Source: Escherichia coli
GTDB taxonomy: Bacteria; Pseudomonadota; Gammaproteobacteria; Enterobacterales; Enterobacteriaceae
DNA: 64,000 nucleotides
NCBI RefSeq assembly: GCF_965641715.1
Contig: NZ_OZ282453.1
Strand: one strand, 5' to 3'
The notes below the pieces were generated by a model, which ran no database searches, was not told the DNA's origin, and worked only from the letters and a program-made list of their open reading frames with translations. Position 1 is the stretch's first letter, and each line of letters opens with the position of its first letter. Below are positions 3,093 through 59,077 of this stretch, piece by piece. Made by a program: the position numbers and the translations under genes.

Positions 3093-3685
3093 GCAATAGT
3101 AGATATTCACTCAAAACCTTTCACGGAGTTGATACGCTTCGATACAGAATTCATCGCACTTTTTCCTCTGCTTCCCTATTAATTTCTGACGAAATGAGAC
3201 TAAGTTGTAATGTATTTTTACAAAGCATCAAACTAATAGAACAGTTAATAATAAAAAAGAAATGATATTTTCGTGTCTTAATTTAATATTATTTGTGATG
3301 TGTTAATAGTATAACTTCAAAAAAGTACAATCTCAAACTTAATCTAAGATTGTCTTTTTTGCGCAGGTTATTCATAAATTGAAATTATGTGTAAGATATT
3401 TTTTTAAGCATTTCATTTCTTTTTTATAAGAAAATCCTCAAAATATTTCTATTCTGGCTATACATTAAGCGGTCCTTAATTCGCTGTTAAGTAAATATAA
3501 TTTGAAACAATAAAGACAAAATATCACCATCCGCCCACACCAAAGAATATCTTCTTATGCGACCTATTTTCTTGTTAGTTAGATCGGATAGCTTATTCAA
3601 TGGCTGGGTATAAATAATTGCTATTGACTGAATCAATGTATTGCAATGTTTATATTTTTAATTATTTATGGTTTAAGGACAAATA

Positions 3686-4249
3686 ATGAGTAAGTTTGTA
3701 AAAACAGCTATTGCTGCAACAATGGTAATGGGTGCGTTCGCTTCTACTTCAACAATCGCCGCTGGCAACAATGGTACAGCACGTTTCTACGGCACCATTG
3801 AAGATTCCCCGTGCTCCATCGTTCCTGATGATCACAAACTGGAAGTTGATATGGGTGACATTGGTTCAGGGATCCTGAAAAACAACGGGACTTCTACACC
3901 GAAAGCTTTCCAGATCCATCTGCAAGACTGTGTGTTTGACACCCAGACAACGATGACCACTACCTTCACCGGTAACGCGTCTTCTACCAACAGCGGCAAT
4001 TACTACACCATTTACAATACCGATACTGGTGCGGCATTTAACAATGTCAGCCTGGCCATTGGTGACGCTCAGGGAACCTCTTATAAAAGCGGCGCGGGTA
4101 TCGAACAGAAAATCGTAAACGATACGGCGACCAACAAAGGCAAAGCGAAGCAGACGCTGGACTTTAAAGCCTGGCTGGTGGGCGCGGCTGATGCGCCAGA
4201 TTTAGGTAATTTTGAAGCCAACACGACCTTCCAGATTACTTATCTCTAA
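3686..4249 (+). CDS. yfcV: Yfc chaperone-usher fimbria, major subunit
   Basis: 187-aa ORF with a signal peptide and a fimbrial-subunit C-terminus (...TTFQITYL). It is the first gene of the yfc cluster and is preceded by a 640-bp AT-rich regulatory region. Confidence 0.9.
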   Translation: MSKFVKTAIAATMVMGAFASTSTIAAGNNGTARFYGTIEDSPCSIVPDDHKLEVDMGDIGSGILKNNGTSTPKAFQIHLQDCVFDTQTTMTTTFTGNASSTNSGNYYTIYNTDTGAAFNNVSLAIGDAQGTSYKSGAGIEQKIVNDTATNKGKAKQTLDFKAWLVGAADAPDLGNFEANTTFQITYL

Positions 4250-4256
4250 GTGATAC

Positions 4257-4285
4257 CCCCATAGCTTTCGGGCTATGGGGTTTTT
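4257..4285 (+). terminator. Intra-operon hairpin/attenuator between major subunit and usher
   Basis: Stem CCCCATAGC (4257-4265) / GCTATGGGG (4272-4280) followed by TTTTT. Confidence 0.75.
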
Positions 4286-4330
4286 AAATGGAATTCGCGC
4301 AAATTATAATAATTACGGATGGATACGTGT

Positions 4331-6970
4331 ATGCCTGACCATTCTCTTTTCCGACTGCGGGTACTTCCCTGCTGCGTTGCATTGGCAATGTCCGGGAGTT
4401 ATGTCAATGCCTGGGCTGAAGATGAAATTCAGTTTGATTCCCGTTTTCTGGAGTTAAAAGGCGACACAAAAATCGATCTGAAGCGATTTTCCAGCCAGGG
4501 TTATGTCGAGCCTGGGAAATACAATTTACAGGTTCAACTAAATAAACAGCCGCTGACGGAAGAATACGATATTTTCTGGTACGCCTCTGAGAACGATGCC
4601 AGTAAAACCTATGCCTGCCTGACGCCTGAACTGGTCGCGCAGTTTGGCTTAAAAGAGGATGTGGCAAAAAACCTGCAATGGATCCACGACGGCAAATGCC
4701 TGAAACCCGGTCAACTGGAAGGCATTGATATTAAAGCTGACCTGAGTCAGTCAGCGTTAGTCATTTCATTACCCCAGGCTTACCTTGAATATACCGACAT
4801 CAACTGGGATCCGCCTTCACGCTGGGATGACGGTATATCTGGTTTAATTGCTGACTACAGTATTACCGCCCAGACACGACATGAAGAAAATGGCGGGGAT
4901 GACAGCAATGAAATTAGCGGTAACGGGACGGTTGGGGTGAACCTCGGCGCATGGCGTCTTCGTGCCGACTGGCAGACTGATTATTTGCATAGTAAAAGCA
5001 ATGATGACGATGTTATCAACGGTGATGACACGCAAAAAAACTGGGAGTGGAGCCGCTACTACGCCTGGCGAGCCTTACCGTCGCTAAAAGCCAAACTTGG
5101 GCTTGGCGAAGACTACCTGAATTCTGATATTTTCGACGGCTTTAACTACGTGGGTGGCAGTATCAGCACCGACGATCAAATGTTGCCGCCGAATCTGCGC
5201 GGCTATGCGCCGGATATCTCCGGCGTGGCGCACACCACCGCGAAAGTGACCGTCAGCCAGATGGGCCGCGTGATTTACGAAACTCAGGTCCCGGCGGGGC
5301 CGTTCCGTATCCAGGATCTTGGCGATTCCGTCTCCGGTACGCTGCATATCCGCATTGAAGAGCAGAACGGTCAGGTGCAGGAATATGACATTAACACTGC
5401 GTCAATGCCGTTCCTGACCCGCCCCGGCCAGGTGCGCTATAAACTGATGATGGGCCGCCCGCAGGAGTGGGGGCACCACGTGGAAGGCGGTTTCTTCTCC
5501 GGCGGCGAAGCTTCCTGGGGGATTGCCAACGGCTGGTCGCTCTACGGCGGGGCGCTGGCAGATGAACACTATCAGTCGGCGGCGCTTGGCATCGGTCGCG
5601 ACCTGTCTGCCTTTGGCGCGGTCGCCTTTGATATCACCCACTCGCATACCCGCCTGGATAAAGAAACTGCCTACGGTAAAGGTTCACTGGACGGTAACTC
5701 GTTTCGCGTGAGCTATTCCAAAGACTTCGATGAACTGAACAGCCGCGTCACTTTTGCCGGATACCGCTTCTCGGAAGAGAACTTCATGACCATGAGCGAG
5801 TATCTCGATGCCAGCGACAGCGAAATGGTGCGCACCGGCAACGACAAAGAGATGTACACCGCCACCTATAACCAGAACTTCAGGGATGCCGGTGTGTCTG
5901 TTTATCTCAACTACACCCGCCATACCTACTGGGATCGCGACGAACAGACTAACTACAACATCATGCTCTCGCACTACTTCAACCTGGGCAGTATCCGCAA
6001 CATGAGCATTTCCATGACCGGATACCGCTACGAGTATGACAACCAGGCCGATAAAGGTGTGTACATATCGCTCAGTATGCCGTGGGGTGACAGCAGCACC
6101 ATCAGCTATAACGGCAACTACGGCAGCGGTTCGGACAGCAGCCAGGTGGGGTATTTCAGCCGTGTCGATGACGCAACCCATTACCAGTTGAACGTAGGCA
6201 CCAGCGACAATCACTCCAGCGTTGACGGTTATTACAGCCACGACGGATCGCTGGCGCAGGTCGATCTCAGCGCTAACTACCATGAAGGGCAGTACACCTC
6301 GGCGGGTATTTCCTTACAGGGCGGCGCGACGCTCACCGCACAAGGTGGCGCGCTCCACCGTACCCAGAATATGGGCGGCACGCGTCTGTTAATAGATGCC
6401 GATGGCGTGGTCGGTGTTCCGGTGGAAGGAAACGGTGCAGCGGTTTACACCAATATGTTCGGTAAGGCCGTGGTGGCAGACGTCAACAACTACTACCGCA
6501 ACCAGGCGTATATCGACCTAAACAACCTGCCGGAAAACGCCGAAGCCACCCAGTCCGTGGTGCAGGCCACCCTTACCGAAGGGGCCATTGGCTACCGTAA
6601 GTTCTCGGTTATCAGCGGGCAAAAAGCGATGGCGGTCCTGCGTCTGCAGGATGGTAGCTACCCGCCGTTTGGCGCGGAAGTGAAAAATGACAACGCGCAG
6701 AACGTTGGTCTGGTTGACGATGACGGCAACGTCTACCTCGCGGGCGTCAAACCTGGCGAGCATATGATCGTTTCATGGGGCGGTGTGGCCCACTGCGATA
6801 TTCATCTGCCTGACCCGCTGCCAGCCGATCTGTTCAATGGCCTGTTATTACCATGCCAGCAAACAGGGGCGATATCTCCTTCGATGCCTCATGAAATTAA
6901 GCCGATGATCCAGGAGCAGACCCAGCAGGTGATGCCAACGGAAGCACCGGTATCGGTATCCGCCAATTAA
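4331..6970 (+). CDS. yfcU: Fimbrial outer-membrane usher (intact)
   Basis: Long uninterrupted ORF. I chose the start at MPDHSLFRLRVLP to match the remembered K-12 YfcU N-terminus. The sequence has usher-typical composition (FDSRFL..., beta-barrel Y/G-rich). Confidence 0.88.
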   Translation: MPDHSLFRLRVLPCCVALAMSGSYVNAWAEDEIQFDSRFLELKGDTKIDLKRFSSQGYVEPGKYNLQVQLNKQPLTEEYDIFWYASENDASKTYACLTPELVAQFGLKEDVAKNLQWIHDGKCLKPGQLEGIDIKADLSQSALVISLPQAYLEYTDINWDPPSRWDDGISGLIADYSITAQTRHEENGGDDSNEISGNGTVGVNLGAWRLRADWQTDYLHSKSNDDDVINGDDTQKNWEWSRYYAWRALPSLKAKLGLGEDYLNSDIFDGFNYVGGSISTDDQMLPPNLRGYAPDISGVAHTTAKVTVSQMGRVIYETQVPAGPFRIQDLGDSVSGTLHIRIEEQNGQVQEYDINTASMPFLTRPGQVRYKLMMGRPQEWGHHVEGGFFSGGEASWGIANGWSLYGGALADEHYQSAALGIGRDLSAFGAVAFDITHSHTRLDKETAYGKGSLDGNSFRVSYSKDFDELNSRVTFAGYRFSEENFMTMSEYLDASDSEMVRTGNDKEMYTATYNQNFRDAGVSVYLNYTRHTYWDRDEQTNYNIMLSHYFNLGSIRNMSISMTGYRYEYDNQADKGVYISLSMPWGDSSTISYNGNYGSGSDSSQVGYFSRVDDATHYQLNVGTSDNHSSVDGYYSHDGSLAQVDLSANYHEGQYTSAGISLQGGATLTAQGGALHRTQNMGGTRLLIDADGVVGVPVEGNGAAVYTNMFGKAVVADVNNYYRNQAYIDLNNLPENAEATQSVVQATLTEGAIGYRKFSVISGQKAMAVLRLQDGSYPPFGAEVKNDNAQNVGLVDDDGNVYLAGVKPGEHMIVSWGGVAHCDIHLPDPLPADLFNGLLLPCQQTGAISPSMPHEIKPMIQEQTQQVMPTEAPVSVSAN

Positions 6971-21527: not shown

Positions 21528-21572
21528 GTGAAAATCCTTGTTGATGAAAAAAATGATGACTTAATTTATTGA
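21528..21572 (+). pseudogene. pdxB: Orphaned native 5' end of pdxB (GTG + 7 native codons, then phage sequence, stop after 14 codons)
   Basis: GTG AAA ATC CTT GTT GAT GAA = MKILVDE, the PdxB N-terminus. It continues into prophage DNA (KNDDLIY*). Confidence 0.75.
21531..21550. repeat. Prophage attachment-site core, ogr/cargo-proximal copy
   Basis: AAAATCCTTGTTGATGAAAA is identical to 57944-57963, and the two copies bracket every phage gene. Confidence 0.8.
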
Positions 21573-21696: not shown

Positions 21697-22590
21697 CTAT
21701 TTCCAGTTACAAGCAGATTGAAGCGGTTTTAGCGCGTTTGACAGGCCGTTTAAATTGAAAGTTGCACTTACGGGGCTCTCATTATAAGGCGTTATTTTTG
21801 TATACATTTTGCTTGAGTTGGCTAGTTTTCGGATGAAATCAATGTCATTACCTTTATAAAAAACAGCCTTTGTATCTGTAGATACTAGCCAGTTTCGCTC
21901 AACTGCTTTCTGTTTATCAAGGCGATAAAGCATGCTGGTTTGTTCAAGGCCTAAATATACATCCCAACTAAGAAATACTTCGGTTTTCTTTTCTCGGCAA
22001 GCTATAAACAGAGTAGGAGTAACCGCTTCTCCAAATGGAGTTCTGATATAATCATCACTTTCTAACGATAAAATTACATTTTTCGAATCATCAATTGGCG
22101 ATGTAGTAATGGATGTGTGCCATTTTCCTACATCTGTGGCTTTCTCTAATTTTGATTCAGCTTGAACGGCTTTATCCTGTGGGAATAGTTTATCGTAGCA
22201 GTTTAGTCTGGCTTCTTTATCATTTTCTGCACGACATTTAGATATCTCAGAAAGATTTGGTTGCTGAGCCTCTGTTGTTACTGGCTTTTCCGTTTTAGAT
22301 TTTGAGTTTACAGATGGAATAAATGTTGGAGAAAAGAAACGATCATAACAAGATAAACGTCTATCATCATCTTTCTCATCAGGGCATTGATCTCTGCTTT
22401 CGAATTTTTCAGCAACTTTCGTTCGAGTCGGTTGTATTGACTTATCGTAACAAGAAAGTCTGTCTTTATTATTTTCTATTGCTCGGCACTGGAGTACTGC
22501 ATTGAAGTTCTTATGTTCAGTTGCTGCGTGAACAGGCAGTACACTAATTGATAAAAATGATGCGCCTATAGAAAAAATTATATTTTTCAT
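21697..22590 (-). CDS. Secreted protein with three N-terminal C-x11-C / RLxCYD modules and a VasI/TagO-like C-terminal domain (function unknown)
   Basis: 297-aa ORF with signal peptide MKNIIFSIGASFLSISVLPVHA. The repeats are CRAIENNKDRLSCYDK, CPDEKDDDRRLSCYDR and CRAENDKEARLNCYDK. It sits in an AT-rich prophage-end moron. Confidence 0.7.
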   Translation of the reverse strand: MKNIIFSIGASFLSISVLPVHAATEHKNFNAVLQCRAIENNKDRLSCYDKSIQPTRTKVAEKFESRDQCPDEKDDDRRLSCYDRFFSPTFIPSVNSKSKTEKPVTTEAQQPNLSEISKCRAENDKEARLNCYDKLFPQDKAVQAESKLEKATDVGKWHTSITTSPIDDSKNVILSLESDDYIRTPFGEAVTPTLFIACREKKTEVFLSWDVYLGLEQTSMLYRLDKQKAVERNWLVSTDTKAVFYKGNDIDFIRKLANSSKMYTKITPYNESPVSATFNLNGLSNALKPLQSACNWK

Positions 22591-22594
22591 TTTA

Positions 22595-22927
22595 TTATCC
22601 CTTTGGTTTAGTAAGAAATACTAAAATTCCGATAATGATATCGCCAATAACCCATAAGCTTCCAATGGTAATTAAACCTAAGCCTGTACCAATAACTGCA
22701 CCGGCTTTTTCAGCATCGGATGTGGCATTATTTATTATTTCACTAGTGCCACCTAGTCCAACTAAAAGCGTATAGATCATAAAAATATTAAATAATATAA
22801 AAACCCACTTAATGATCCGTCCAAAAAATGAACGCTTAAGTTTTTGTAGTTGTTTACCACAAGCAGGGCAATACAATGCTGAATCGCTCACCTCTTTCTG
22901 GCATTCAGGACATTTGATTAATGCCAT
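22595..22927 (-). CDS. Zinc-ribbon membrane protein (function unknown)
   Basis: 110-aa ORF with CPEC-x10-CPAC at the N-terminus and two hydrophobic helices. AGGAGG lies 8 nt before the ATG, and the stop is 4 nt from the next gene. Confidence 0.7.
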   Translation of the reverse strand: MALIKCPECQKEVSDSALYCPACGKQLQKLKRSFFGRIIKWVFILFNIFMIYTLLVGLGGTSEIINNATSDAEKAGAVIGTGLGLITIGSLWVIGDIIIGILVFLTKPKG

Positions 22928-47141: not shown

Positions 47142-47498
47142 ATGGAAATGAATATGAAAACTGTAACTGATGATGAATTTCGTGAGAACCTGAGTGAAAT
47201 TCTGGATTACCTTTCTTCCGGTGGCAGTGTCGTTATCACGGCGCAGGGAGGGAAGGATGTTGTTCTTGCTGGTTCTGATCTTAGTCCTGAAATACGGGCT
47301 GTCCTTGGCAAAACCAAAAAACTGCGGGATCAAATAAACAAAATGAAGCAACCACTCTTAATAAATGCAGTGAGAGATCTGGAAAAACGTCATCCAGCTC
47401 TTGTCGCACAGAGAAAAAAAGGATTGTCTTTTGAAGATGCAATGAAGCGTACAAGAGAAAAACATGCGGATATCATTAAAAAGCTTGAGGATAACTGA
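47142..47498 (+). CDS. phd: Phd/YefM-family antitoxin with extended C-terminal region (start may be the ATG at 47154)
   Basis: MKTVTDDEFRENLSEILDYLSSGGSVVITAQGGKDVVL is a Phd/YefM-type N-domain. The stop overlaps the doc start (TGATG). Confidence 0.8.
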   Translation: MEMNMKTVTDDEFRENLSEILDYLSSGGSVVITAQGGKDVVLAGSDLSPEIRAVLGKTKKLRDQINKMKQPLLINAVRDLEKRHPALVAQRKKGLSFEDAMKRTREKHADIIKKLEDN

Positions 47499-47905
47499 TG
47501 GACATAGTGTTTTTGTCAAAAGAACAAGTAGAACGTATCCATGCTGAAACTTTACCCCAGAGCGGAAATGCCAATGACGGGCTACTTGAAGGTGCTTTAA
47601 ATCGCGTCAGGACACTACACTACTATGAAGGGGTTGATGATATTCATGCTCTGGCTGCTATGTATTTGATTGGTATAGCCAAGGCTCATGCCTTTCATGA
47701 TGGGAATAAACGCACAGCTTTTCAGGCTGCATCAATATTTTTAATGATGAACTCTTCCGAACTTTCAAACTCCCTGCTGCTGGTTAAATTAACGGTGTTT
47801 TCAGCAATGGGGATAGCTACCCTTGAGGAAGTTACCTTTGCTTTGAAATTGCTGTCTGATTATGGCAATGAATTAATCAGCGACTACGAAGAAGATTATA
47901 TTTAA
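47498..47905 (+). CDS. doc: Doc (death-on-curing) Fic-fold kinase toxin
   Basis: 135-aa ORF. HAFHDGNKRTA matches the Doc motif H-x-F-x-D-x-N-K-R-T. Confidence 0.88.
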   Translation: MDIVFLSKEQVERIHAETLPQSGNANDGLLEGALNRVRTLHYYEGVDDIHALAAMYLIGIAKAHAFHDGNKRTAFQAASIFLMMNSSELSNSLLLVKLTVFSAMGIATLEEVTFALKLLSDYGNELISDYEEDYI

Positions 47906-48071
47906 TGCTGGCATACTCTGTCGTGTTAAGACAACAGCCTTTGCGGAGACAGGGCAGGGTGCCAGACTTGCCCGCAGCGCGTCTGACATGAGCAGTTATT
48001 CATCTTTTTTATTGTTTTTCTCCATGCAGGGCGACAGTGCGCCCCGATAAAATTAAAAGCCGTCAAATTCG

Positions 48072-48407
48072 TCATTCATGCGTTTTTTCTTCATGGTCTG
48101 TCACTTCTCTCCTGATAACTTCATTGCACAAATCAACGCACTCATTGCAGATGTAAACAGACGGTCCGGCAATCACCTTTGTGACTTCGTACTGGGATTT
48201 ATTGCAGAAGCTGCAATAAATCGTCTCCTCACCTGAAGTCCATGTTTTGCTGGTTTCGCCAGACATCAGTTGTTTGAGGTCTTTTTCACGACGAAGAACT
48301 ATCTGGCCACATTCAGCTATTTTTTGGATGTTGACATTTTCTTCTTTCGCCAGCGCTTCCATCCGCTCAATCAGTCGCTGCGCTTTTTCTCTGTCAATGC
48401 GTTGCAT
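48072..48407 (-). CDS. Stand-alone ClpX N-terminal zinc-binding-domain (ZBD) protein with a coiled-coil N-terminus and no AAA+ module
   Basis: 111-aa [42 protein letters not shown] compares with E. coli Clp[46 protein letters not shown] acts as the SD. Confidence 0.85.
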
Positions 48408-48470
48408 TGTGTCCCCCTTGTTTATGTTCCCGGGTTAAAGTCATCAGGGCGGATGCGCCCTGATGTTGTG

Positions 48471-48782
48471 TTATTCGGGAAATAACGCCCGGATATTTCC
48501 GGCCATCTGACTGGTTATCTGTGCGGTTGATACTGGCTGTGACGCGGGGCGTTCTGTCCTGGTTTGTGTCACTGATAACGCTTCATCATCAGCCCATGCA
48601 GCCAGTCGGTAAGCCTCTGCCGGATTCATTTTCAGAAGTGCCAGCCCGGCCAGAAAAGCCACGCGTTGGCCGCTTTTGCGCGCTTCTGGTGTAAGGCTGT
48701 CCAGCCAGGCGCATGCTTCACCTTCGTTCTTGACGGCGGCGGGCTTCAGATAGAAACTTATCCGTCTGGTTGGAGTCGTCAT
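48471..48782 (-). CDS. parR: ParR-like centromere-binding adaptor (RHH)
   Basis: Start MTTPTRRISFYLKP...LDSLTPEARKSGQRVAFLAGLALL parallels R1 ParR (RRTIAFKLNP...LDSIPQGERSRLNRAALTAGLALY). AAGGAG overlaps the parM stop. Confidence 0.8.
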   Translation of the reverse strand: MTTPTRRISFYLKPAAVKNEGEACAWLDSLTPEARKSGQRVAFLAGLALLKMNPAEAYRLAAWADDEALSVTQTRTERPASQPVSTAQITSQMAGNIRALFPE

Positions 48783-48786
48783 TGGT

Positions 48787-49746
48787 TTACTCCTTGTCCA
48801 TTGCGTACAGCCCATTAACCAGAGCAAACTGTGGCACCCCGTCCGCGATGAAAGTCGCATTAACTCCGCAGGCTTCGCGGATAGCGGGTGCCACAATCTC
48901 CGCCCCGCCACCGACAACCATCACCCGCCCGTAACCCGAAAAAACCGCCAGCGCGCGGATCACGCGTTGTTTCAGTGTTTCTTCCTTTTCACGAATAACC
49001 GCCATCAGGCTGGCGTAATGCGCGTCATTGTGGATGTGCTGGCGCAACCAGGCTTCATCATGGCGATGTTCGATAATGGTATTGGCGATGTGGTGACTGA
49101 TACGCATACCGTTAGTGGCCATCACCGACAGTACGGCATCGGCCATCAGGGAAACGCCTACGTGTGGATCGCAAAACACCTGGCTGATACCTGCCAGTTG
49201 CCCCTGAACCTTTGCCACATCCAGTGTGGTTCCGCCCAAATCCACAATCAGCAGGGATTCAAGCGGACTCATGTCAGCCAGTGCTTTAAAGCCAGCCGGA
49301 ATGGATTCAGGCATAACCCGTACGTTACGGATAGTGAATGTTTCGCCGTTCTGGTACTCCACCGGGCGCATAACGTTCGCTTTTTTGCGGCTGATGTTGG
49401 CCATGTCCGGCTGTGCGTTTGTGTCGAAATACTCGCTCAATGGCAGGGTGACAACCACATCCACCTCCTGTGGCGTGATGCCTGATTTGACCAGCGCGTG
49501 ATGAATGGCAATGACATTCACATCGCTGTACTGGTATTGCGTGTCGGTCGTCTGGACAAAGCGATCGCTGACCGGATCAAAACCATAGCGCACGCCATCA
49601 AGCATGTAGTTCGCGGGCTGCGAGCCACCGAACGGCGCAGACCATTCCGACTTGAAGCTGTTCGGGCTGATGGCGTTGCGGCGTTCGCCGTTCTCAGTCC
49701 ATGCCAGCTTGATGTTGGTGGAGCCGTCGTCGATACAAATTTTCAT
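48787..49746 (-). CDS. parM: ParM/StbA actin-like segregation ATPase
   Basis: 319-aa ORF. MKICIDDGSTNIKLAW...ISPNSFK...YQYSDVNVIAIHHAL...VMPESIPAG...DLGGTTLD...GGGAE is collinear with R1 ParM. Confidence 0.9.
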   Translation of the reverse strand: MKICIDDGSTNIKLAWTENGERRNAISPNSFKSEWSAPFGGSQPANYMLDGVRYGFDPVSDRFVQTTDTQYQYSDVNVIAIHHALVKSGITPQEVDVVVTLPLSEYFDTNAQPDMANISRKKANVMRPVEYQNGETFTIRNVRVMPESIPAGFKALADMSPLESLLIVDLGGTTLDVAKVQGQLAGISQVFCDPHVGVSLMADAVLSVMATNGMRISHHIANTIIEHRHDEAWLRQHIHNDAHYASLMAVIREKEETLKQRVIRALAVFSGYGRVMVVGGGAEIVAPAIREACGVNATFIADGVPQFALVNGLYAMDKE

Positions 49747-49783
49747 GTCGCTTTTCCTTATGTTGATTAATTAATCGTTTACA

Positions 49784-49871
49784 GGATTTTTAAATCCCGC
49801 TTTTGCCTGTTTTGTGCGCGCTTCATATATCGCGGCACGTTTTTTGCTCATTTATGGGATTTGTGAATCCC
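49784..49871. promoter_or_regulatory. Two GGATT..AATCC palindromes upstream of parM (candidate parC/operator)
   Basis: GGATTT-TT-AAATCC at 49784-49797 and GGGATT-TGTG-AATCCC at 49856-49871. The second lies inside the 3' end of the gpA ORF. Confidence 0.3.
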
Positions 49872-52645
49872 GTTTCTGTCTGTTTTTTGTTTCCACTGGT
49901 CAGGCCACCCCGCAGCAGGTCTGCTTTGCGGCTGGCGCGTTCAGTGGTTTCACTGATTCTCTGTGCGTGCTCTGCGTCGCGGATGGCGCGCAGCATGTCA
50001 GAAAGCACGGTAACGGGTGTTTTCATGGTGTTCTGGTCCTGCTGAAGTGTGGATGCCAGGCGTGCGGCGGCTTCAGGGTCTGATGCCCCCAGCTGTGCCA
50101 GATAGCTGGCGACCGGGTTATGGCGGATCTCCGTGCTGCTTACGCCATGATTACGGCTCAGGCGCTGCCAGAGCTGCGTGATTCGGCTGTCCGGGCGGGT
50201 ATCCGGTTTGCGTACAATTTCAAATCCCTGCGGTGCAATGATGCTGCCGTCAACGTACAGACTGCCGCCCCGTAACAGGTGCTGCATCTGTTGTTCACCG
50301 ATATGCAGGCCGAGAGATTCAGCAGACTCCCGCCATTCTTTAGCGAGTAATTCGTGGTTATCAGGCAAAGGCCGTGGCTGTTTGCGGCTCTGTGTCCAGC
50401 TCTGCATTTCATCACTGCTGTTTTTTGCCTGTTTGTCACGAAGCGAACGCATCAGCGCCCGGCGTTCGTGCCGTTTCAGTGAGCGCATCCATTCGTTCAC
50501 GTCAACGCCGTCAGGAAGCTGCGGCCACGGTGCTGGCCGTTCTTTCGACTGTTCTGTCCCGCTGTTGCCTGTTTCCTGTACACGGGGACAGTTATTGCCA
50601 CGAGTCCAAGGGGCGGCAGGGCCGCCCTGAAGGTCAAAACCATTTTCGCGGGCGCTGTCTTCCGTTTCCGGTTTACGTCTTACCAGTTTCCAGTTATCCG
50701 GATGCGTGCACACACGGGAGGATTCCCCGATGAGTGGTGACCAGATCCCGTAAATCTGTACGCTCTGTTCGCCGTAATCATTCAGCTCATCTGCGAGGTC
50801 GTAGGCGGTGCGAATCAGGTAGTCTTTGCGTGGAACAAGTACGCCGCCCTGTTTTTCAATGTAGGTGGCAAAACACCCGGCATCGGCGGCAGCGAGTACC
50901 GCATCCATTGCGTCATCTTTCAGTCGTTGCGGGCCTTCCGGGTTGCGTGCCATCTGGCTGGCAAGGCGGCGCAGTTCACGCCACACCTGACGGGAGGGGA
51001 TGCCAAAGAACTGGAACTGGCGGACCCGATGAAGGCGCGCCCAGCCGATGGCGCGCTCCACACTCTCGGCCATTGATTTTCCGGTTTCGTGGTCAACGCG
51101 TGGCTTGCCCGTTTTCGGGTCGATGCCATCCACGGCGCGGCTGTCCAGGTTCTTTCCGATGTAGGTCGCGATATAGCTGGTTGGTGTGCCTTTTGAGCCG
51201 TCGACATACTCCGCCTTAAAGCGCGGAGTAATATCATTGCCCAGCTCGTGGCGGTCTTCCTGAATGGCAATATCGCGGGTGATGGCCACGATGCTGTCGA
51301 TTTCTTCCGGATGAGCAAAGACCATCATATGCCAGTGCACGGTGCCGTCATGGTGAGGCTCCACCGTGCGGATGCCATACCAGCGAAGACCGTCGCGGTT
51401 CAGTTTTTTGCGGACCGCCGCAAAAAACGTGTTAACCAGGTAATCGCTGGAGTCGCGCATGGTGGCCCCGTTCCATTTGGGATTCGGATGACCGTTCTCT
51501 GTTGTGGCGTGGTATTTTGACGGGCAGGTGACAGTCAGAAACACCGCTTTGTCGCCACGGGCTTCGGCCAGAAGTTCCAGCCCCTTCATGGTGGCCATCA
51601 TTTCTGCCTTACGGTGAACCGGGTTACTTACTCCCGCGTAATACACCGTCTCGAGATCAATCGTGAACCCGTCTTCATTTTCCAGCATGAAACTTTTCAG
51701 GAAATCGCGTGTTTTCTCGCGCTGTGCGCGAAACTCGCTTAACGCGTCCTGGCTCAGATAGGGCGATGTTTTTCTGGAAACCAGACAGGCGGCGCGGAGT
51801 TGTTCTTCTCTCCACTCGCAACGTAACAGCCACAGTTTGCGTTTCCACCATTCTGCACAGGTCAGGCGAAGGATTGCGCCCGGCAGCAGCTCCGTGTCCG
51901 GTTCGTTCCTCTGGTCTTTGTCTGTTGTCAGTGCGTCATAATGTGGAGGCATGGCGTGCAGGTGTAACGCCATGCGGGCCAGCATCTGATACGCCTTCAG
52001 CGTTACATCCATGGTCAGTTCGCCATCGGTCGCGCCAAAGCCATCGCAGAGTTTTTCGAAGGTGCTGCTGAACATCGCCGCCGTCATGGTGGCCAGTGTC
52101 TGTATCTGGTGTTTGTTGAGCTGCGGCAGGTAAAGCAAATCGTCCAGGCGTTCGCGTCCGGCAAGGGAGCGATAACCCTGTGTCAGCCAGCGGTGATCGG
52201 TGCGCTCCAGACGTTCGAATATTTTGCGCAGGTTTCCGCGCGCGTAGCGTTCAGCCTGCCAGCTCTTTTTGCCTTTCTGACGATCGGCTTCCTGTTTTTT
52301 GCGCAGGAAGGAGAGGTGGCGAATAAGCGGATCGCGCAGATAGGACGGCAGCAGGCGCAGCGAGGCCATGGCTTCATCCACCGCGCCGCGTGCCTGTTTT
52401 CTGGCATCTCCTGCCAGTGTGATGGTTTTGTCCTGTTTTTCCTGTGCGTCCAGGCTTTTATTAATCAGGTTGCCCAGCGGCGTTGCGGAGAACGCCGCAT
52501 CAGCCATTTCCTGGCGGTGCTCGTTCTCTACCCGGTAGGCATCCAGCCAGGAGGAAAGCGCGGATTCAGGAGCGGGGATCCCCGTTCCTTCACGCCCCAC
52601 TGCGTGGCGCGGTTGTTGCCAGTCCCTGATGTACTCTGCCGTCAT
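49823..52645 (-). CDS. Rolling-circle replication initiator endonuclease, gpA-like (940 aa, long C-terminal extension)
   Basis: It contains the HUH-type metal motif (DGTVHWHMMVF) and has the position of P2 A at the end of the early operon. Confidence 0.85.
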   Translation of the reverse strand: MTAEYIRDWQQPRHAVGREGTGIPAPESALSSWLDAYRVENEHRQEMADAAFSATPLGNLINKSLDAQEKQDKTITLAGDARKQARGAVDEAMASLRLLPSYLRDPLIRHLSFLRKKQEADRQKGKKSWQAERYARGNLRKIFERLERTDHRWLTQGYRSLAGRERLDDLLYLPQLNKHQIQTLATMTAAMFSSTFEKLCDGFGATDGELTMDVTLKAYQMLARMALHLHAMPPHYDALTTDKDQRNEPDTELLPGAILRLTCAEWWKRKLWLLRCEWREEQLRAACLVSRKTSPYLSQDALSEFRAQREKTRDFLKSFMLENEDGFTIDLETVYYAGVSNPVHRKAEMMATMKGLELLAEARGDKAVFLTVTCPSKYHATTENGHPNPKWNGATMRDSSDYLVNTFFAAVRKKLNRDGLRWYGIRTVEPHHDGTVHWHMMVFAHPEEIDSIVAITRDIAIQEDRHELGNDITPRFKAEYVDGSKGTPTSYIATYIGKNLDSRAVDGIDPKTGKPRVDHETGKSMAESVERAIGWARLHRVRQFQFFGIPSRQVWRELRRLASQMARNPEGPQRLKDDAMDAVLAAADAGCFATYIEKQGGVLVPRKDYLIRTAYDLADELNDYGEQSVQIYGIWSPLIGESSRVCTHPDNWKLVRRKPETEDSARENGFDLQGGPAAPWTRGNNCPRVQETGNSGTEQSKERPAPWPQLPDGVDVNEWMRSLKRHERRALMRSLRDKQAKNSSDEMQSWTQSRKQPRPLPDNHELLAKEWRESAESLGLHIGEQQMQHLLRGGSLYVDGSIIAPQGFEIVRKPDTRPDSRITQLWQRLSRNHGVSSTEIRHNPVASYLAQLGASDPEAAARLASTLQQDQNTMKTPVTVLSDMLRAIRDAEHAQRISETTERASRKADLLRGGLTSGNKKQTETGFTNPINEQKTCRDI

Positions 52646-56660: not shown

Positions 56661-56756
56661 GGCCAGAAAACTGGTTAGACCTGCTTTTTGTCTGGTCTGA
56701 TTATTGCTGGAAAGAGGCTGGAGAAATTGTAGAGCGGTTCATTGGAGGGCTTCGTA

Positions 56757-57761
56757 ATGTCGATTAAGAAGCTCGAAGATGGTCGTTATTTGCTGGACAT
56801 CAGGCCGAACGGACGCAAGGGAAAGCGCGTGCGTAAGGTATTTGACAAAAAATCGGTAGCGGTGGCCACTGAACGCTACATCATGGCGAACGCTGAAAAG
56901 CGGGAATATATACAGGGCTACCGTGATCGTCGAACGCTAAATGATTTGCTTGAGTTGTGGTGGATGTATCACGGCCAGCACAGGCGTAAGGCGGAAGAAG
57001 ACCGAAAACAACTGCGCAACATAATCAATGAGCTTGGCGCTGATATGCAGGCTGTGGATCTTGATAAGCTGAAAATTATCGCGTGGCGTTCTCAAAAGAT
57101 AGCTGAAGGATTGAAACCGTCATCTGCTAACAGGTACATGAATCGGTTATCCGGAATGTTTACCGTGCTGAAAAAAATAGGTCTTTGGGATGCAGAACAT
57201 CCAGTAAGGGGAATTTCTATTCTTTATGTATCTCCACGAGAAATGGCGTTCCTGTCACAGAAGGAAGTGGCGCTATTGCTCGATACACTGGAGGGCGACT
57301 ACTGGCGTGTTGCGCTTTTGTGTTTAAGCACAGGGGCGCGCTGGAGTGAAGCTTGTAAGCTTCGTGGTGAACAGATAGTTCATAACCGTGTAACGTTTCT
57401 TGAAACCAAAAATGGCCGGAAGAGAACAGTGCCAATTTCGCAGGCAGTTTGTGAGGCGATCAAAACCAGAGAAACAGGCGGCTTGTTTGAGGTGAAGTAC
57501 CGGGAATTCTGCCTGGCGCTGAAAAGAGTTAAGCCCGACTTACCAAAAGGCCAGGCTGCACATGTGCTGCGGCATACGTTCGCCAGCCATTTTGTGATGA
57601 ACGGAGGAAACATTATTGCGCTTCAGAAGATTCTTGGTCACGCAACCATTCAGCAAACAATGGCATATGCGCATTTTGCACCGGATTACCTGCAGGATGC
57701 GGTGGCCCTTAATCCGCTGAAAGGTGGCGTAAGTGTCCACGCAGTGTCCACGGGGGATTAA
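56757..57761 (+). CDS. int: Tyrosine integrase, P2 Int-like
   Basis: MSIKKLEDGRYLLDIRPNGRKGKRVRKVFDKKS... through ...HVLRHTFASHF...LGH...YAHFAPDYLQDAVALNPL is collinear with P2 Int. Confidence 0.93.
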   Translation: MSIKKLEDGRYLLDIRPNGRKGKRVRKVFDKKSVAVATERYIMANAEKREYIQGYRDRRTLNDLLELWWMYHGQHRRKAEEDRKQLRNIINELGADMQAVDLDKLKIIAWRSQKIAEGLKPSSANRYMNRLSGMFTVLKKIGLWDAEHPVRGISILYVSPREMAFLSQKEVALLLDTLEGDYWRVALLCLSTGARWSEACKLRGEQIVHNRVTFLETKNGRKRTVPISQAVCEAIKTRETGGLFEVKYREFCLALKRVKPDLPKGQAAHVLRHTFASHFVMNGGNIIALQKILGHATIQQTMAYAHFAPDYLQDAVALNPLKGGVSVHAVSTGD

Positions 57762-57919: not shown

Positions 57920-59077
57920 TTGTCAGAGACTGAAAAAGGGTTAAAAATCCTTGTTGATGAAAATATGCCTTATGCCCGCGACTTATTTAGCCGTTTGGGT
58001 GAGGTGACCGCGGTTCCCGGGCGTCCAATCCCCGTCGCTCAACTGGCAGACGCGGATGCGCTGATGGTGCGTTCGGTCACGAAAGTGAATGAATCTTTGC
58101 TGGCAGGAAAACCCATTAAATTTGTTGGCACTGCCACTGCGGGGACCGACCATGTCGATGAAGCATGGTTGAAGCAGGCGGGAATTGGTTTTTCCGCTGC
58201 ACCTGGCTGTAATGCGATTGCGGTGGTGGAATATGTTTTCTCCTCCCTGCTGATGCTTGCCGAACGCGATGGATTTTCACTGCACGAGCGTACCGTGGGG
58301 ATCGTGGGCGTTGGTAATGTTGGTCGGCGTTTACAGGCACGACTGGAAGCGTTAGGGATTAAAACCTTGCTTTGCGATCCGCCTCGCGCTGACCGTGGGG
58401 ATGAGGGTGATTTCCGCTCGCTGGATGAATTAGTTCAGCATGCGGATATTCTGACTTTCCATACGCCACTTTTCAAAGACGGGCCGTACAAAACGCTGCA
58501 TCTGGCGGATGAAAAACTGATCCGTAACCTGAAGCCAGGAGCGATTCTGATTAACGCCTGCCGTGGCGCAGTCGTCGATAATACCGCGCTGCTGACCTGC
58601 CTGAATGAAGGCCAGAAGTTAAGCGTAGTGCTGGATGTCTGGGAAGGCGAACCGGAACTTAACGTGGAGTTGCTGACAAAAGTGGATATCGGCACGCCGC
58701 ATATTGCAGGCTATACCCTGGAAGGTAAAGCACGCGGTACTACGCAAGTGTTTGAAGCCTATAGCAAGTTTATTGGGCATGAACAGCACGTTGCGCTGGA
58801 TACATTACTACCCGCGCCAGAGTTTGGTCGCATTACACTGCATGGCCCGCTCGATCAACCGACGCTGAAAAGGCTGGTGCATTTGGTGTATGATGTGCGC
58901 CGCGATGACGCACCGCTGCGTAAAGTCGCCGGGATACCGGGTGAGTTCGATAAACTGCGCAAAAACTATCTTGAGCGCCGTGAATGGTCATCTCTGTATG
59001 TAATTTGTGATGACGCCAGTGCGGCATCATTGCTGTGTAAACTGGGTTTTAACGCCGTTCATCATCCGGCACGTTAA
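57920..59077 (+). CDS. pdxB: Erythronate-4-phosphate dehydrogenase PdxB with phage-derived 5' end (TTG start; an alternative internal ATG is at 57965)
   Basis: From [21 protein letters not shown] onward the sequence is canonical PdxB. The upstream MSETEKGL plus AAGGAG (57907-57912) come from the prophage arm. Confidence 0.88.
57944..57963. repeat. Prophage attachment-site core, int-proximal copy (inside pdxB codons)
   Basis: AAAATCCTTGTTGATGAAAA is identical to 21531-21550. Confidence 0.8.

Follow-up and report, generated by a model that had tools for sequence, protein, structure and literature searches.

A predicted ParMRC-type partition module beside the replication gene gpA of a P88-like prophage integrated in Escherichia coli

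Type II partition is best known from the ParMRC locus (parA/stb) of plasmids R1 and R100, the paradigm of the family, in which parM is followed by parR and the cis-acting sites lie upstream of parM. Related or analogous loci have also been described in elements that are normally integrated in a chromosome. In the SXT/R391 integrative and conjugative elements (ICEs), the excised circle replicates in the rolling-circle mode, and this is found together with a toxin-antitoxin pair and the type II locus srpMRC, which reduces element loss (Carraro, Poulin and Burrus 2015; PMC4489591). Likewise, the AlpAC/alpS system of the integrated prophage CGP3 of Corynebacterium glutamicum comprises an actin-like filament protein, AlpC, and a DNA-binding adaptor, AlpA. 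AlpA attaches to repeats that precede its own operon, in the promoter region, and tethers phage DNA circles to the AlpC filaments; the genes are induced early, and phage DNA is replicated efficiently only if both proteins are present (Donovan et al. 2015; PMC4446434). Here, we analyzed a window of 64,000 nucleotides of an Escherichia coli contig (NZ_OZ282453.1), in which an integrated P2-like prophage carries a parM-parR cassette directly downstream of its replication gene, gpA. By its sequence and organization, this cassette appears to be a type II (ParMRC-type) partition module that works, and its substrate would be the phage genome in its circular, extrachromosomal form, as opposed to the prophage in its integrated state; to this reading we assign a rough probability of 0.55.

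The parMR cassette and its host prophage

The parM gene (48787-49746, minus strand) encodes an actin-fold segregation ATPase of 319 amino acids, and parR (48471-48782, minus strand), whose start codon lies 4 nt past the parM stop codon, encodes a ribbon-helix-helix (RHH) centromere-binding adaptor of 103 amino acids. The parM product matched the Pfam families StbA_N (E = 4e-82) and ParM C-terminal domain (E = 3.5e-68) as well as phrog_691, 'partition protein' (1.6e-89), and could be aligned over its full length with the structure of R1 ParM, 1mwk (residues 2-316 to 2-318, E = 7.5e-94). In a full-length pairwise alignment, identity to the R1-type ParM of plasmid pHK08 amounted to 47%. All nucleotide-binding motifs, i.e., phosphate-1 (IDDGSTNIKL), PES (MPESIPAG), phosphate-2 (DLGGTTLD) and adenosine (GGGAE), were identical to those of R1, and no inactivating ATPase substitution was found in the alignments against R1-type ParM and 1mwk. 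The parR product belongs to Pfam PF10784 (Plasmid_stab_B, E = 1.6e-24) and to phrog_2515, also termed 'partition protein' (1.1e-58), an assignment to which profile comparisons contributed as well. The identification of both genes and their minus-strand positions, as made beforehand from the sequence letters without database searches (hereafter the original prediction), was therefore right, as was the collinearity with R1 that had been noted through the nucleotide-binding motifs of ParM. The R1 ParR strings quoted on that occasion agree with the alignment of a real R1-type ParR.

ParR shares with its R1-type counterpart the Pfam family, the pattern of the N-terminal strand and a C-terminal motif with an invariant Asn, but is about 24% identical to it and has a shorter linker (103 versus 116 amino acids in total). 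In an alignment of 32 phage-type ParRs, three parts could be told apart: a near-invariant N-terminal domain, in which MTTPTRRISFYLKPAAVK is followed by helices, a hypervariable linker (residues ~67-93), and an invariant C-terminal tip, N-I-[RQ]-x-[LF]-F-P-E. About the invariant Asn, this tip can be matched to plasmid ParR C-termini (R1-type ...KKNAMKLIN; IncL/M ...RKNVQHLFPDDD), and the motif common to the phage and plasmid proteins reads x-N-[IVA]-x-x-[LMF]-[FI]-P/N. In R1, the C-terminal peptide of ParR is the part that binds ParM. The only solved structure matched by ParR profiles was that of the ParR/parC system of pB171 (StbB, 2jd3), with an E value of 1.9e-13 when plasmid ParRs were included and of 0.0046 with phage sequences only; the alignment spans the RHH core, although the sequence identity of the two proteins is low. 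A search of the PDB with the single ParR sequence gave no match. An AF2 model of the ParR monomer, of low confidence (pLDDT 59.8), was in agreement with this three-part layout: it placed helices at residues 20-61 and, past a disordered stretch (62-85), a terminal helix at 86-100.

Directly upstream of parM and in the same orientation lies gpA (49823-52645, minus strand), which encodes a rolling-circle replication endonuclease of 940 amino acids (Pfam Phage_GPA, E = 6.1e-131, with the domain restricted to residues 179-503; phrog_91, 'nicking at origin of replication'). The long C-terminal part of this protein corresponds to phrog_6857, a family of unknown function, and the length of gpA products among relatives varies from 785 to 940 amino acids.

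Over 48300-50000, the sequence shares 97.8% identity with phage P88 (Xuanwuvirus, Peduoviridae), and the element is a P88-like P2-family prophage integrated at the 5' end of the host gene pdxB. Membership of the P2-like phages follows also from the Phage_GPA domain, from the genome map of P88 and from the RefSeq annotation of the same prophage in E. coli RM10740, whose chromosome contains a stretch 100% identical to the 1405-bp cassette. In line with the earlier proposal of an integrated P2-like element, a tyrosine integrase gene, int (56742-57761, plus strand; Pfam Int_N and Phage_integrase, and RefSeq annotation in RM10740), adjoins pdxB, and the borders are formed by two exact copies of the 20-bp att core AAAATCCTTGTTGATGAAAA, attL at 21531-21550 and attR at 57944-57963 (both plus strand), the latter inside the 5' end of pdxB. 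The prophage is flanked by host genes, with usg, truA, dedA, accD and others following.

With regard to pdxB itself (57920-59077), the prophage is inserted in its first codons. The attL side retains the original start region (GTG AAA ATC CTT GTT GAT GAA...), and on the attR side pdxB reads on from sequence contributed by the phage, in which an in-frame TTG is found 24 nt upstream; the RefSeq PdxB comprises 385 amino acids. Given the position of the insertion, the phage replaces the promoter, the start codon and the N-terminus of a gene of an essential pathway. In RM10740 (locus 3286-5901), RefSeq annotates an IS66-family element, ISCro1, between a tail-fibre assembly gene and a phage tail gene of the same prophage.

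Paired palindromes upstream of parM

Two palindromes upstream of parM are good candidates for parC and for an operator, and would represent putative ParR sites. The proximal one (49784-49797; GGATTTAAAAATCC on the coding strand, within GCGGGATTTAAAAATCCTG) is centred ~45 nt before the parM ATG, and the distal one (49857-49870; GGATTCACAAATCC on the coding strand) lies 73 bp further upstream, in the last ~22 codons of gpA. Both had been spotted in the original prediction, including the location of the distal one inside the 3' end of gpA. They are the only two matches to GGATT-N4-AATCC in the window, and both extend as 16-bp GGG-N10-CC(C) elements. Furthermore, each falls within a separate copy of a direct repeat of 42 nt: copy 1, the reference (49775-49816), contains the proximal palindrome together with an A/C-rich flank on the coding strand, and copy 2 (49848-49889), which is 79% identical to it, contains the distal palindrome, with a start-to-start distance of again 73 bp.

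A comparison of 54 distinct upstream sequences from related prophages revealed that the palindrome arms were conserved, while changes gathered in the central 4 nt and in the immediate flanks. Arm changes that do occur, such as GGATTC to GGACTC, turn an F of the gpA tail into L. The Plesiomonas lineage and a second Hafnia lineage each harbor two GGG-N10-CCC elements, at ~-130 and ~-57 from the parM ATG, and across lineages the paired sites are positioned at about -125 to -130 and -52 to -57. Their spacing in four lineages was 73, 73, 72 and 73 bp with diverged intervening DNA, and this two-site layout was present even where ParM was only 62% identical. When each upstream region was subjected to mononucleotide shuffling, a GGG-N10-CC pair at 70-75 bp appeared in at most 0.015% (1.5e-4) of the shuffles. 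The idea that these palindromes are ParR sites thus gained comparative support from the conserved arms, the variable centres and the recurrent layout, and they are best regarded as candidate sites.

This arrangement differs from that of R1, where two blocks of five 11-bp direct iterons flank the par promoter; the R1-type upstream region that we used for comparison is an A/C-rich iteron array. In the prophage, by contrast, there are two palindromic sites, partly within gpA, with no iteron array and no consensus promoter between them, and the dissimilarity from the ten iterons of R1 had been correctly pointed out before. The R1 locus resides on a low-copy plasmid and the present cassette on an integrating P2-like phage, and it is solely in the R1-specific architecture of the centromere and in the plasmid context that the module departs from the type II ParMRC family.

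Conservation in P2-like prophages and alternative readings

The cassette was found in 1306 of 5426 complete E. coli genomes (24%), with up to three copies in each, and the strains that bear it include O157:H7, O104:H4 and ST131. As many as 1451 of its 1453 places in these genomes are chromosomal. Its genes have their own PHROG families and are already labelled as ParM and partition protein by PGAP, and as "plasmid segregation protein ParM" and "partition protein" in the RefSeq record of P88. To call a segregation machine unexpected in such a phage, as the original prediction did, was therefore an overstatement, which is weakened further by the clade-wide conservation of the module and by the precedents of SrpMRC (PMC4489591) and AlpAC (PMC4446434).

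Among 50,697 phage records, a ParM of the same family was present only in 14 P88-like genomes and in the P1-like phage D6; P2 and 186 were absent from the matches in this collection. The StbA-type locus of D6, whose ParM is 47.5% identical, belongs to a 91-kb non-integrating plasmid prophage in which partition is expected, whereas the present element integrates. Plasmid ParMs reached an identity to the prophage ParM of at most 52.6%, and a tblastn search with phage-type ParR against 72,556 plasmid records gave seven matches, all of them P88-like sequences. The nearest non-P88 ParMs were 55-62% identical, and the four that we looked up, from Plesiomonas, Serratia, Enterobacter and Hafnia, all lay in P2-like prophages in the order gpA-parM-parR-cargo-portal. 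These wider relatives were recovered by a ParM protein search with contig look-ups, and a scan based on the ParR alignment, whose patterns were too specific, returned three loci. The gpA-parM-parR order was kept in all related prophages examined for which the upstream flank was present, including all ParR variants examined, and the cassette is syntenic with gpA across genera. In a neighbor-joining tree of ParM, which lacks support values and provides a hint only, the P2-like proteins formed two clades apart from the plasmid clades. The module is an old, vertically kept part of a P2-like phage clade, comprising P88-like phages (Xuanwuvirus) in Escherichia, Salmonella and Citrobacter and relatives in Hafnia, Plesiomonas, Serratia and Enterobacter, and not a recent pick-up. 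A P88-like cassette with a 93% identical ParR was also seen on a 226-kb contig labelled Vagococcus sp. (Firmicutes; NZ_JBQPOM010000071.1), most likely an enterobacterial contamination or a mislabelled assembly.

All 83 related loci had an intact parM gene, whose pairwise dN/dS against the window copy was 0.06-0.19. The gene is thus under purifying selection, which argues strongly against the view that the cassette is an inactive relic of an ancestral plasmid-phage fusion. That view could draw on the fact that no promoter was detected; on the other side, the catalytic motifs are conserved, as are the cis sites and the synteny across genera, and we regard it as very improbable.

On the far side of parR, the prophage carries a variable set of genes that extends to the portal gene. 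Directly downstream of parR, 48072-48407 (minus strand) encodes a 111-residue protein made up almost entirely of a C4 zinc finger of the ClpX type (Pfam, 3.1e-17; phrog_6797, of unknown function). This gene is also present in P88, where it is mis-annotated as 'carboxylate--amine ligase', and since it is missing from 569R5 and 520873, it is considered cargo outside the par module; its product might disturb adaptor or substrate recognition by host ClpX. Further on, at 47142-47905 (plus strand), a Phd/YefM antitoxin (118 amino acids) and a Doc/Fic toxin (135 amino acids) are encoded with a one-base overlap, as cargo between parR and the portal. They constitute the same kind of addiction pair as that on plasmid-prophage P1, and Doc showed weak PADLOC matches to the candidate systems PDC-S23 and PDC-M59B. 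At the opposite, tail/ogr end, within the att borders, 21697-22927 (minus strand) encodes a 297-residue protein that matches the VasI domain of type VI secretion (2.4e-25) and a 110-residue zinc-ribbon protein, probably lysogenic-conversion cargo; P88 has hok/gef and other genes at this place.

ParR alleles down to 41-57% identity were found beside ParMs that were 97-98% identical and beside near-identical operators. In the comparison of P88 (allele A) with 569R5 (allele B), for instance, the ParRs were 56% identical, and the operators were nearly identical. Covariation of ParR allele and operator, considered as a signal of specificity, was not seen in this pair, because the N-terminal 18 residues of ParR are invariant. 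The diversity of alleles looks like the product of a free-running linker and of recombination at the edge of the cargo region, and not of changed specificity, since the predicted DNA-reading strand and ParM-binding tip do not vary.

These observations bear on a further alternative, namely that parMR was co-opted for a role other than segregation, as moron or defence-like cargo directed, for example, against ParMRC plasmids or superinfecting relatives by way of incompatibility. The cassette does border the variable parR-portal region (with Phd/Doc and the ClpX zinc-finger gene here, and other genes in relatives), and it does have many ParR alleles next to a nearly uniform ParM. However, parMR, unlike the cargo, keeps its synteny with gpA in all lineages examined, and the ParR variation, which falls mostly in the linker, resembles relaxed constraint more than an arms race. 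In the plasmid records searched, phage-type ParR lacks close relatives on genuine plasmids, and R1-type iterons are unrelated to the phage operators, which makes cross-reaction with plasmid centromeres unlikely. No PADLOC family was found for ParM, ParR or the ClpX zinc-finger protein, and a defence-system reading was rejected on this ground together with the conserved gpA synteny. Co-option appears quite unlikely as a whole, and the anti-plasmid or incompatibility role put forward in the original prediction found no support.

Another alternative holds that P88-like phages are facultative plasmid-prophages, which would persist over many generations as low-copy circles as well as integrate, with ParMRC partitioning the circular state. 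This draws on NZ_CP148288.1, a 34,461-bp circular E. coli 'plasmid' that is a complete P88-like genome with int, a C repressor and a single att core, AAAATCCTTGTTGATGAAAA, located next to int and equivalent to attP; the assembly of this strain was not among the complete E. coli genomes searched for an integrated copy. In addition, the phage records CP025923 and CP025874 have accessions in the style of genome assemblies and names of host strains, plasmid-style addiction genes occur (Phd/Doc here, hok/gef in P88 and NZ_CP148288.1), and plasmid-prophage D6 has a ParM of the same family. Circular records, however, can arise by spontaneous induction. Furthermore, nearly all copies in complete E. 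coli genomes are chromosomal, the integrase is intact, and no plasmid-type replication initiator was seen, the sole replication gene being that of the rolling-circle endonuclease gpA. Moreover, the up to three cassettes per genome have near-identical operators, and co-resident plasmids built in this way would be incompatible. In the window, too, the element is not extrachromosomal, as int and attL/attR flank it in pdxB. On balance, this alternative is doubtful, and the episomal lifestyle that had been suggested would, as a stable state, be at most rare. It is known that the cassette gives rise to "plasmid" gene calls in chromosomes; in itself, it is not evidence of a plasmid.

It is a possible, if speculative, extension that P88-like phages, which rank among the commonest prophages of E. 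coli, have a heritable non-integrated carrier state, in which a monomeric circle replicated by gpA would be partitioned by a minimal two-palindrome ParMRC, possibly in looped form. Should this be true, lysogeny would form a continuum from plasmid to integrated prophage, and the two-site parC would represent a new, simpler type of type II partition complex.

Expression and proposed role of the module

In a terminator scan, no terminator-like site was found on the coding strand between gpA and parM. As parMR adjoins gpA in the same orientation, with neither a terminator nor a consensus promoter between them, the simplest expectation is co-expression with gpA, and parMR would most likely be expressed by read-through from the early (gpA) operon. 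The module would, on that account, be on after infection or induction and off in the repressed lysogen. A Shine-Dalgarno sequence, AAGGA (49755-49759, minus strand), precedes the parM ATG. Between the proximal operator and this ATG, an ATTAAT box (49770-49775, minus strand), invariant in the four-lineage alignment, could at a guess be a weak -10 element, with its -35 element overlapping the proximal operator; a weak, ParR-repressible promoter over the proximal operator is thus possible. The cassette is closed, 6 nt past the parR stop codon, by a hairpin (48442-48465) with a perfect 10-bp stem (100% complementary), which has a T-run at its 3' side on the plus strand only and is terminator-like on that strand. 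For the copy in O157:H7 (CP-933T), the supplementary text examined from two omics papers contained no ParM or ParR entry.

In the mechanism that we propose, ParR dimers would insert the N-terminal beta-strand, RRISFYLKP, into the two phased 16-bp GGG-N10-CC(C) operators just upstream of parM, whose separation of 73 bp corresponds to ~seven helical turns. The C-terminal helix of ParR (N-I-R-A-L-F-P-E) would capture the ends of ParM filaments, and ATP-driven ParM polymerization would separate paired phage DNA circles. Such circles would be present between infection and Int-mediated integration, once the prophage has been excised, and while gpA drives rolling-circle replication. P2-type rolling-circle replication gives monomeric circles, and these would be plasmid-like substrates for partition. 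The pay-off would be that both daughters inherit an unintegrated or excised genome, and/or that replicating genomes are spread and positioned. Of the functions contemplated in the original prediction, the best fit is that the module handles circular genomes that have been excised or are replicating.

The better-studied integrating elements suggest that this logic is sound. The trio of gpA, ParMR and Phd/Doc seen here would parallel that of R391/SXT, in which a type II locus likewise serves a normally integrated element. SXT/R391 elements are, however, ICEs and not phages; stability has been demonstrated for srpMRC, while the prophage module is known from sequence, and SrpM/SrpR are described as no more than remote relatives of R1 ParMR, in contrast to the phage ParM with its close homology to R1. 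Like our locus, the AlpAC system belongs to an integrated prophage and pairs an actin-like filament protein with an adaptor that binds DNA. It differs in that its gene order is not ParM-then-ParR, in that AlpC is not closely related to R1 ParM by sequence and lacks dynamic instability of the ParM type, and in that CGP3 is a cryptic prophage of an actinobacterial host.

The data on CGP3 also favor a more restricted role, in which ParMR would move or anchor replicating circles for lytic replication or packaging and would have no part in inheritance, given that the phage copy number was halved upon loss of AlpA or AlpC (PMC4446434). The position of parMR directly downstream of gpA, co-oriented and with no terminator between, and the maintenance of this link across genera point in the same direction. 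Against positioning alone stand the closeness of the prophage ParM to R1 ParM (47%), which is a bipolar pushing spindle for plasmid pairs, the efficient replication of P2 and 186 without such a module, and the confinement of this ParM in phage records to P88-like genomes and D6. As an exclusive role, positioning is a tentative alternative with somewhat more in its favor than a facultative plasmid state. It overlaps with the preferred explanation, and on present evidence the inheritance of circles and their positioning for replication cannot be separated.

Several points weigh against the preferred reading, i.e., a working module that acts on circular phage genomes. Full-text literature searches gave no functional study of ParMR in P2-like phages, and a lytic or integrating phage has no obvious need for segregation; in the case of CGP3, the authors argued against segregation to daughter cells and for positioning for replication (PMC4446434). 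A scan of 47900-50300 for sigma-70 consensus promoters returned no site. With two candidate sites versus ten R1 iterons, the canonical ParR ring or helix may not form. Nor is the pair of operators universal: one related prophage (L056; IMG/VR contig 2657245439_000011), in which the 3' end of gpA differs, has kept the proximal palindrome and is devoid of the distal one, and this natural one-operator variant could reveal whether a single site suffices. A different layout is also seen in the lineages from Serratia and Enterobacter (ParM 55-59% identical), with one long inverted repeat at the same place, which reads GGGAAC...AGAAAAAT / ATTTTTCT...GTTCCC, and with a ParR strand RKISFYLKP, compared to RRISFYLKP here. 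Finally, the AF2 model of ParR gave nothing meaningful in a Foldseek search against the PDB, an outcome that says little, together with the monomer model itself, because the RHH strand needs a dimer.

What is already known, then, is the public annotation of the genes as ParM and partition protein, and the concept, which has been demonstrated for ICEs and for one actinobacterial prophage. Modestly new are the clade-wide linkage of gpA and parMR, the two-operator layout with its phasing of 72-73 bp, and the three-part conservation of ParR. If the module works as proposed, actin-type partition would be routine in integrating elements as well as in plasmids, with this prophage joining the SXT/R391 ICEs and CGP3, and it would concern a family of prophages carried by roughly one in four of the E. 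coli sequenced. It would also bear on how unintegrated or excised prophage genomes escape loss at cell division, on the efficiency with which lysogeny is established and kept, and on the minimal size of a type II centromere.

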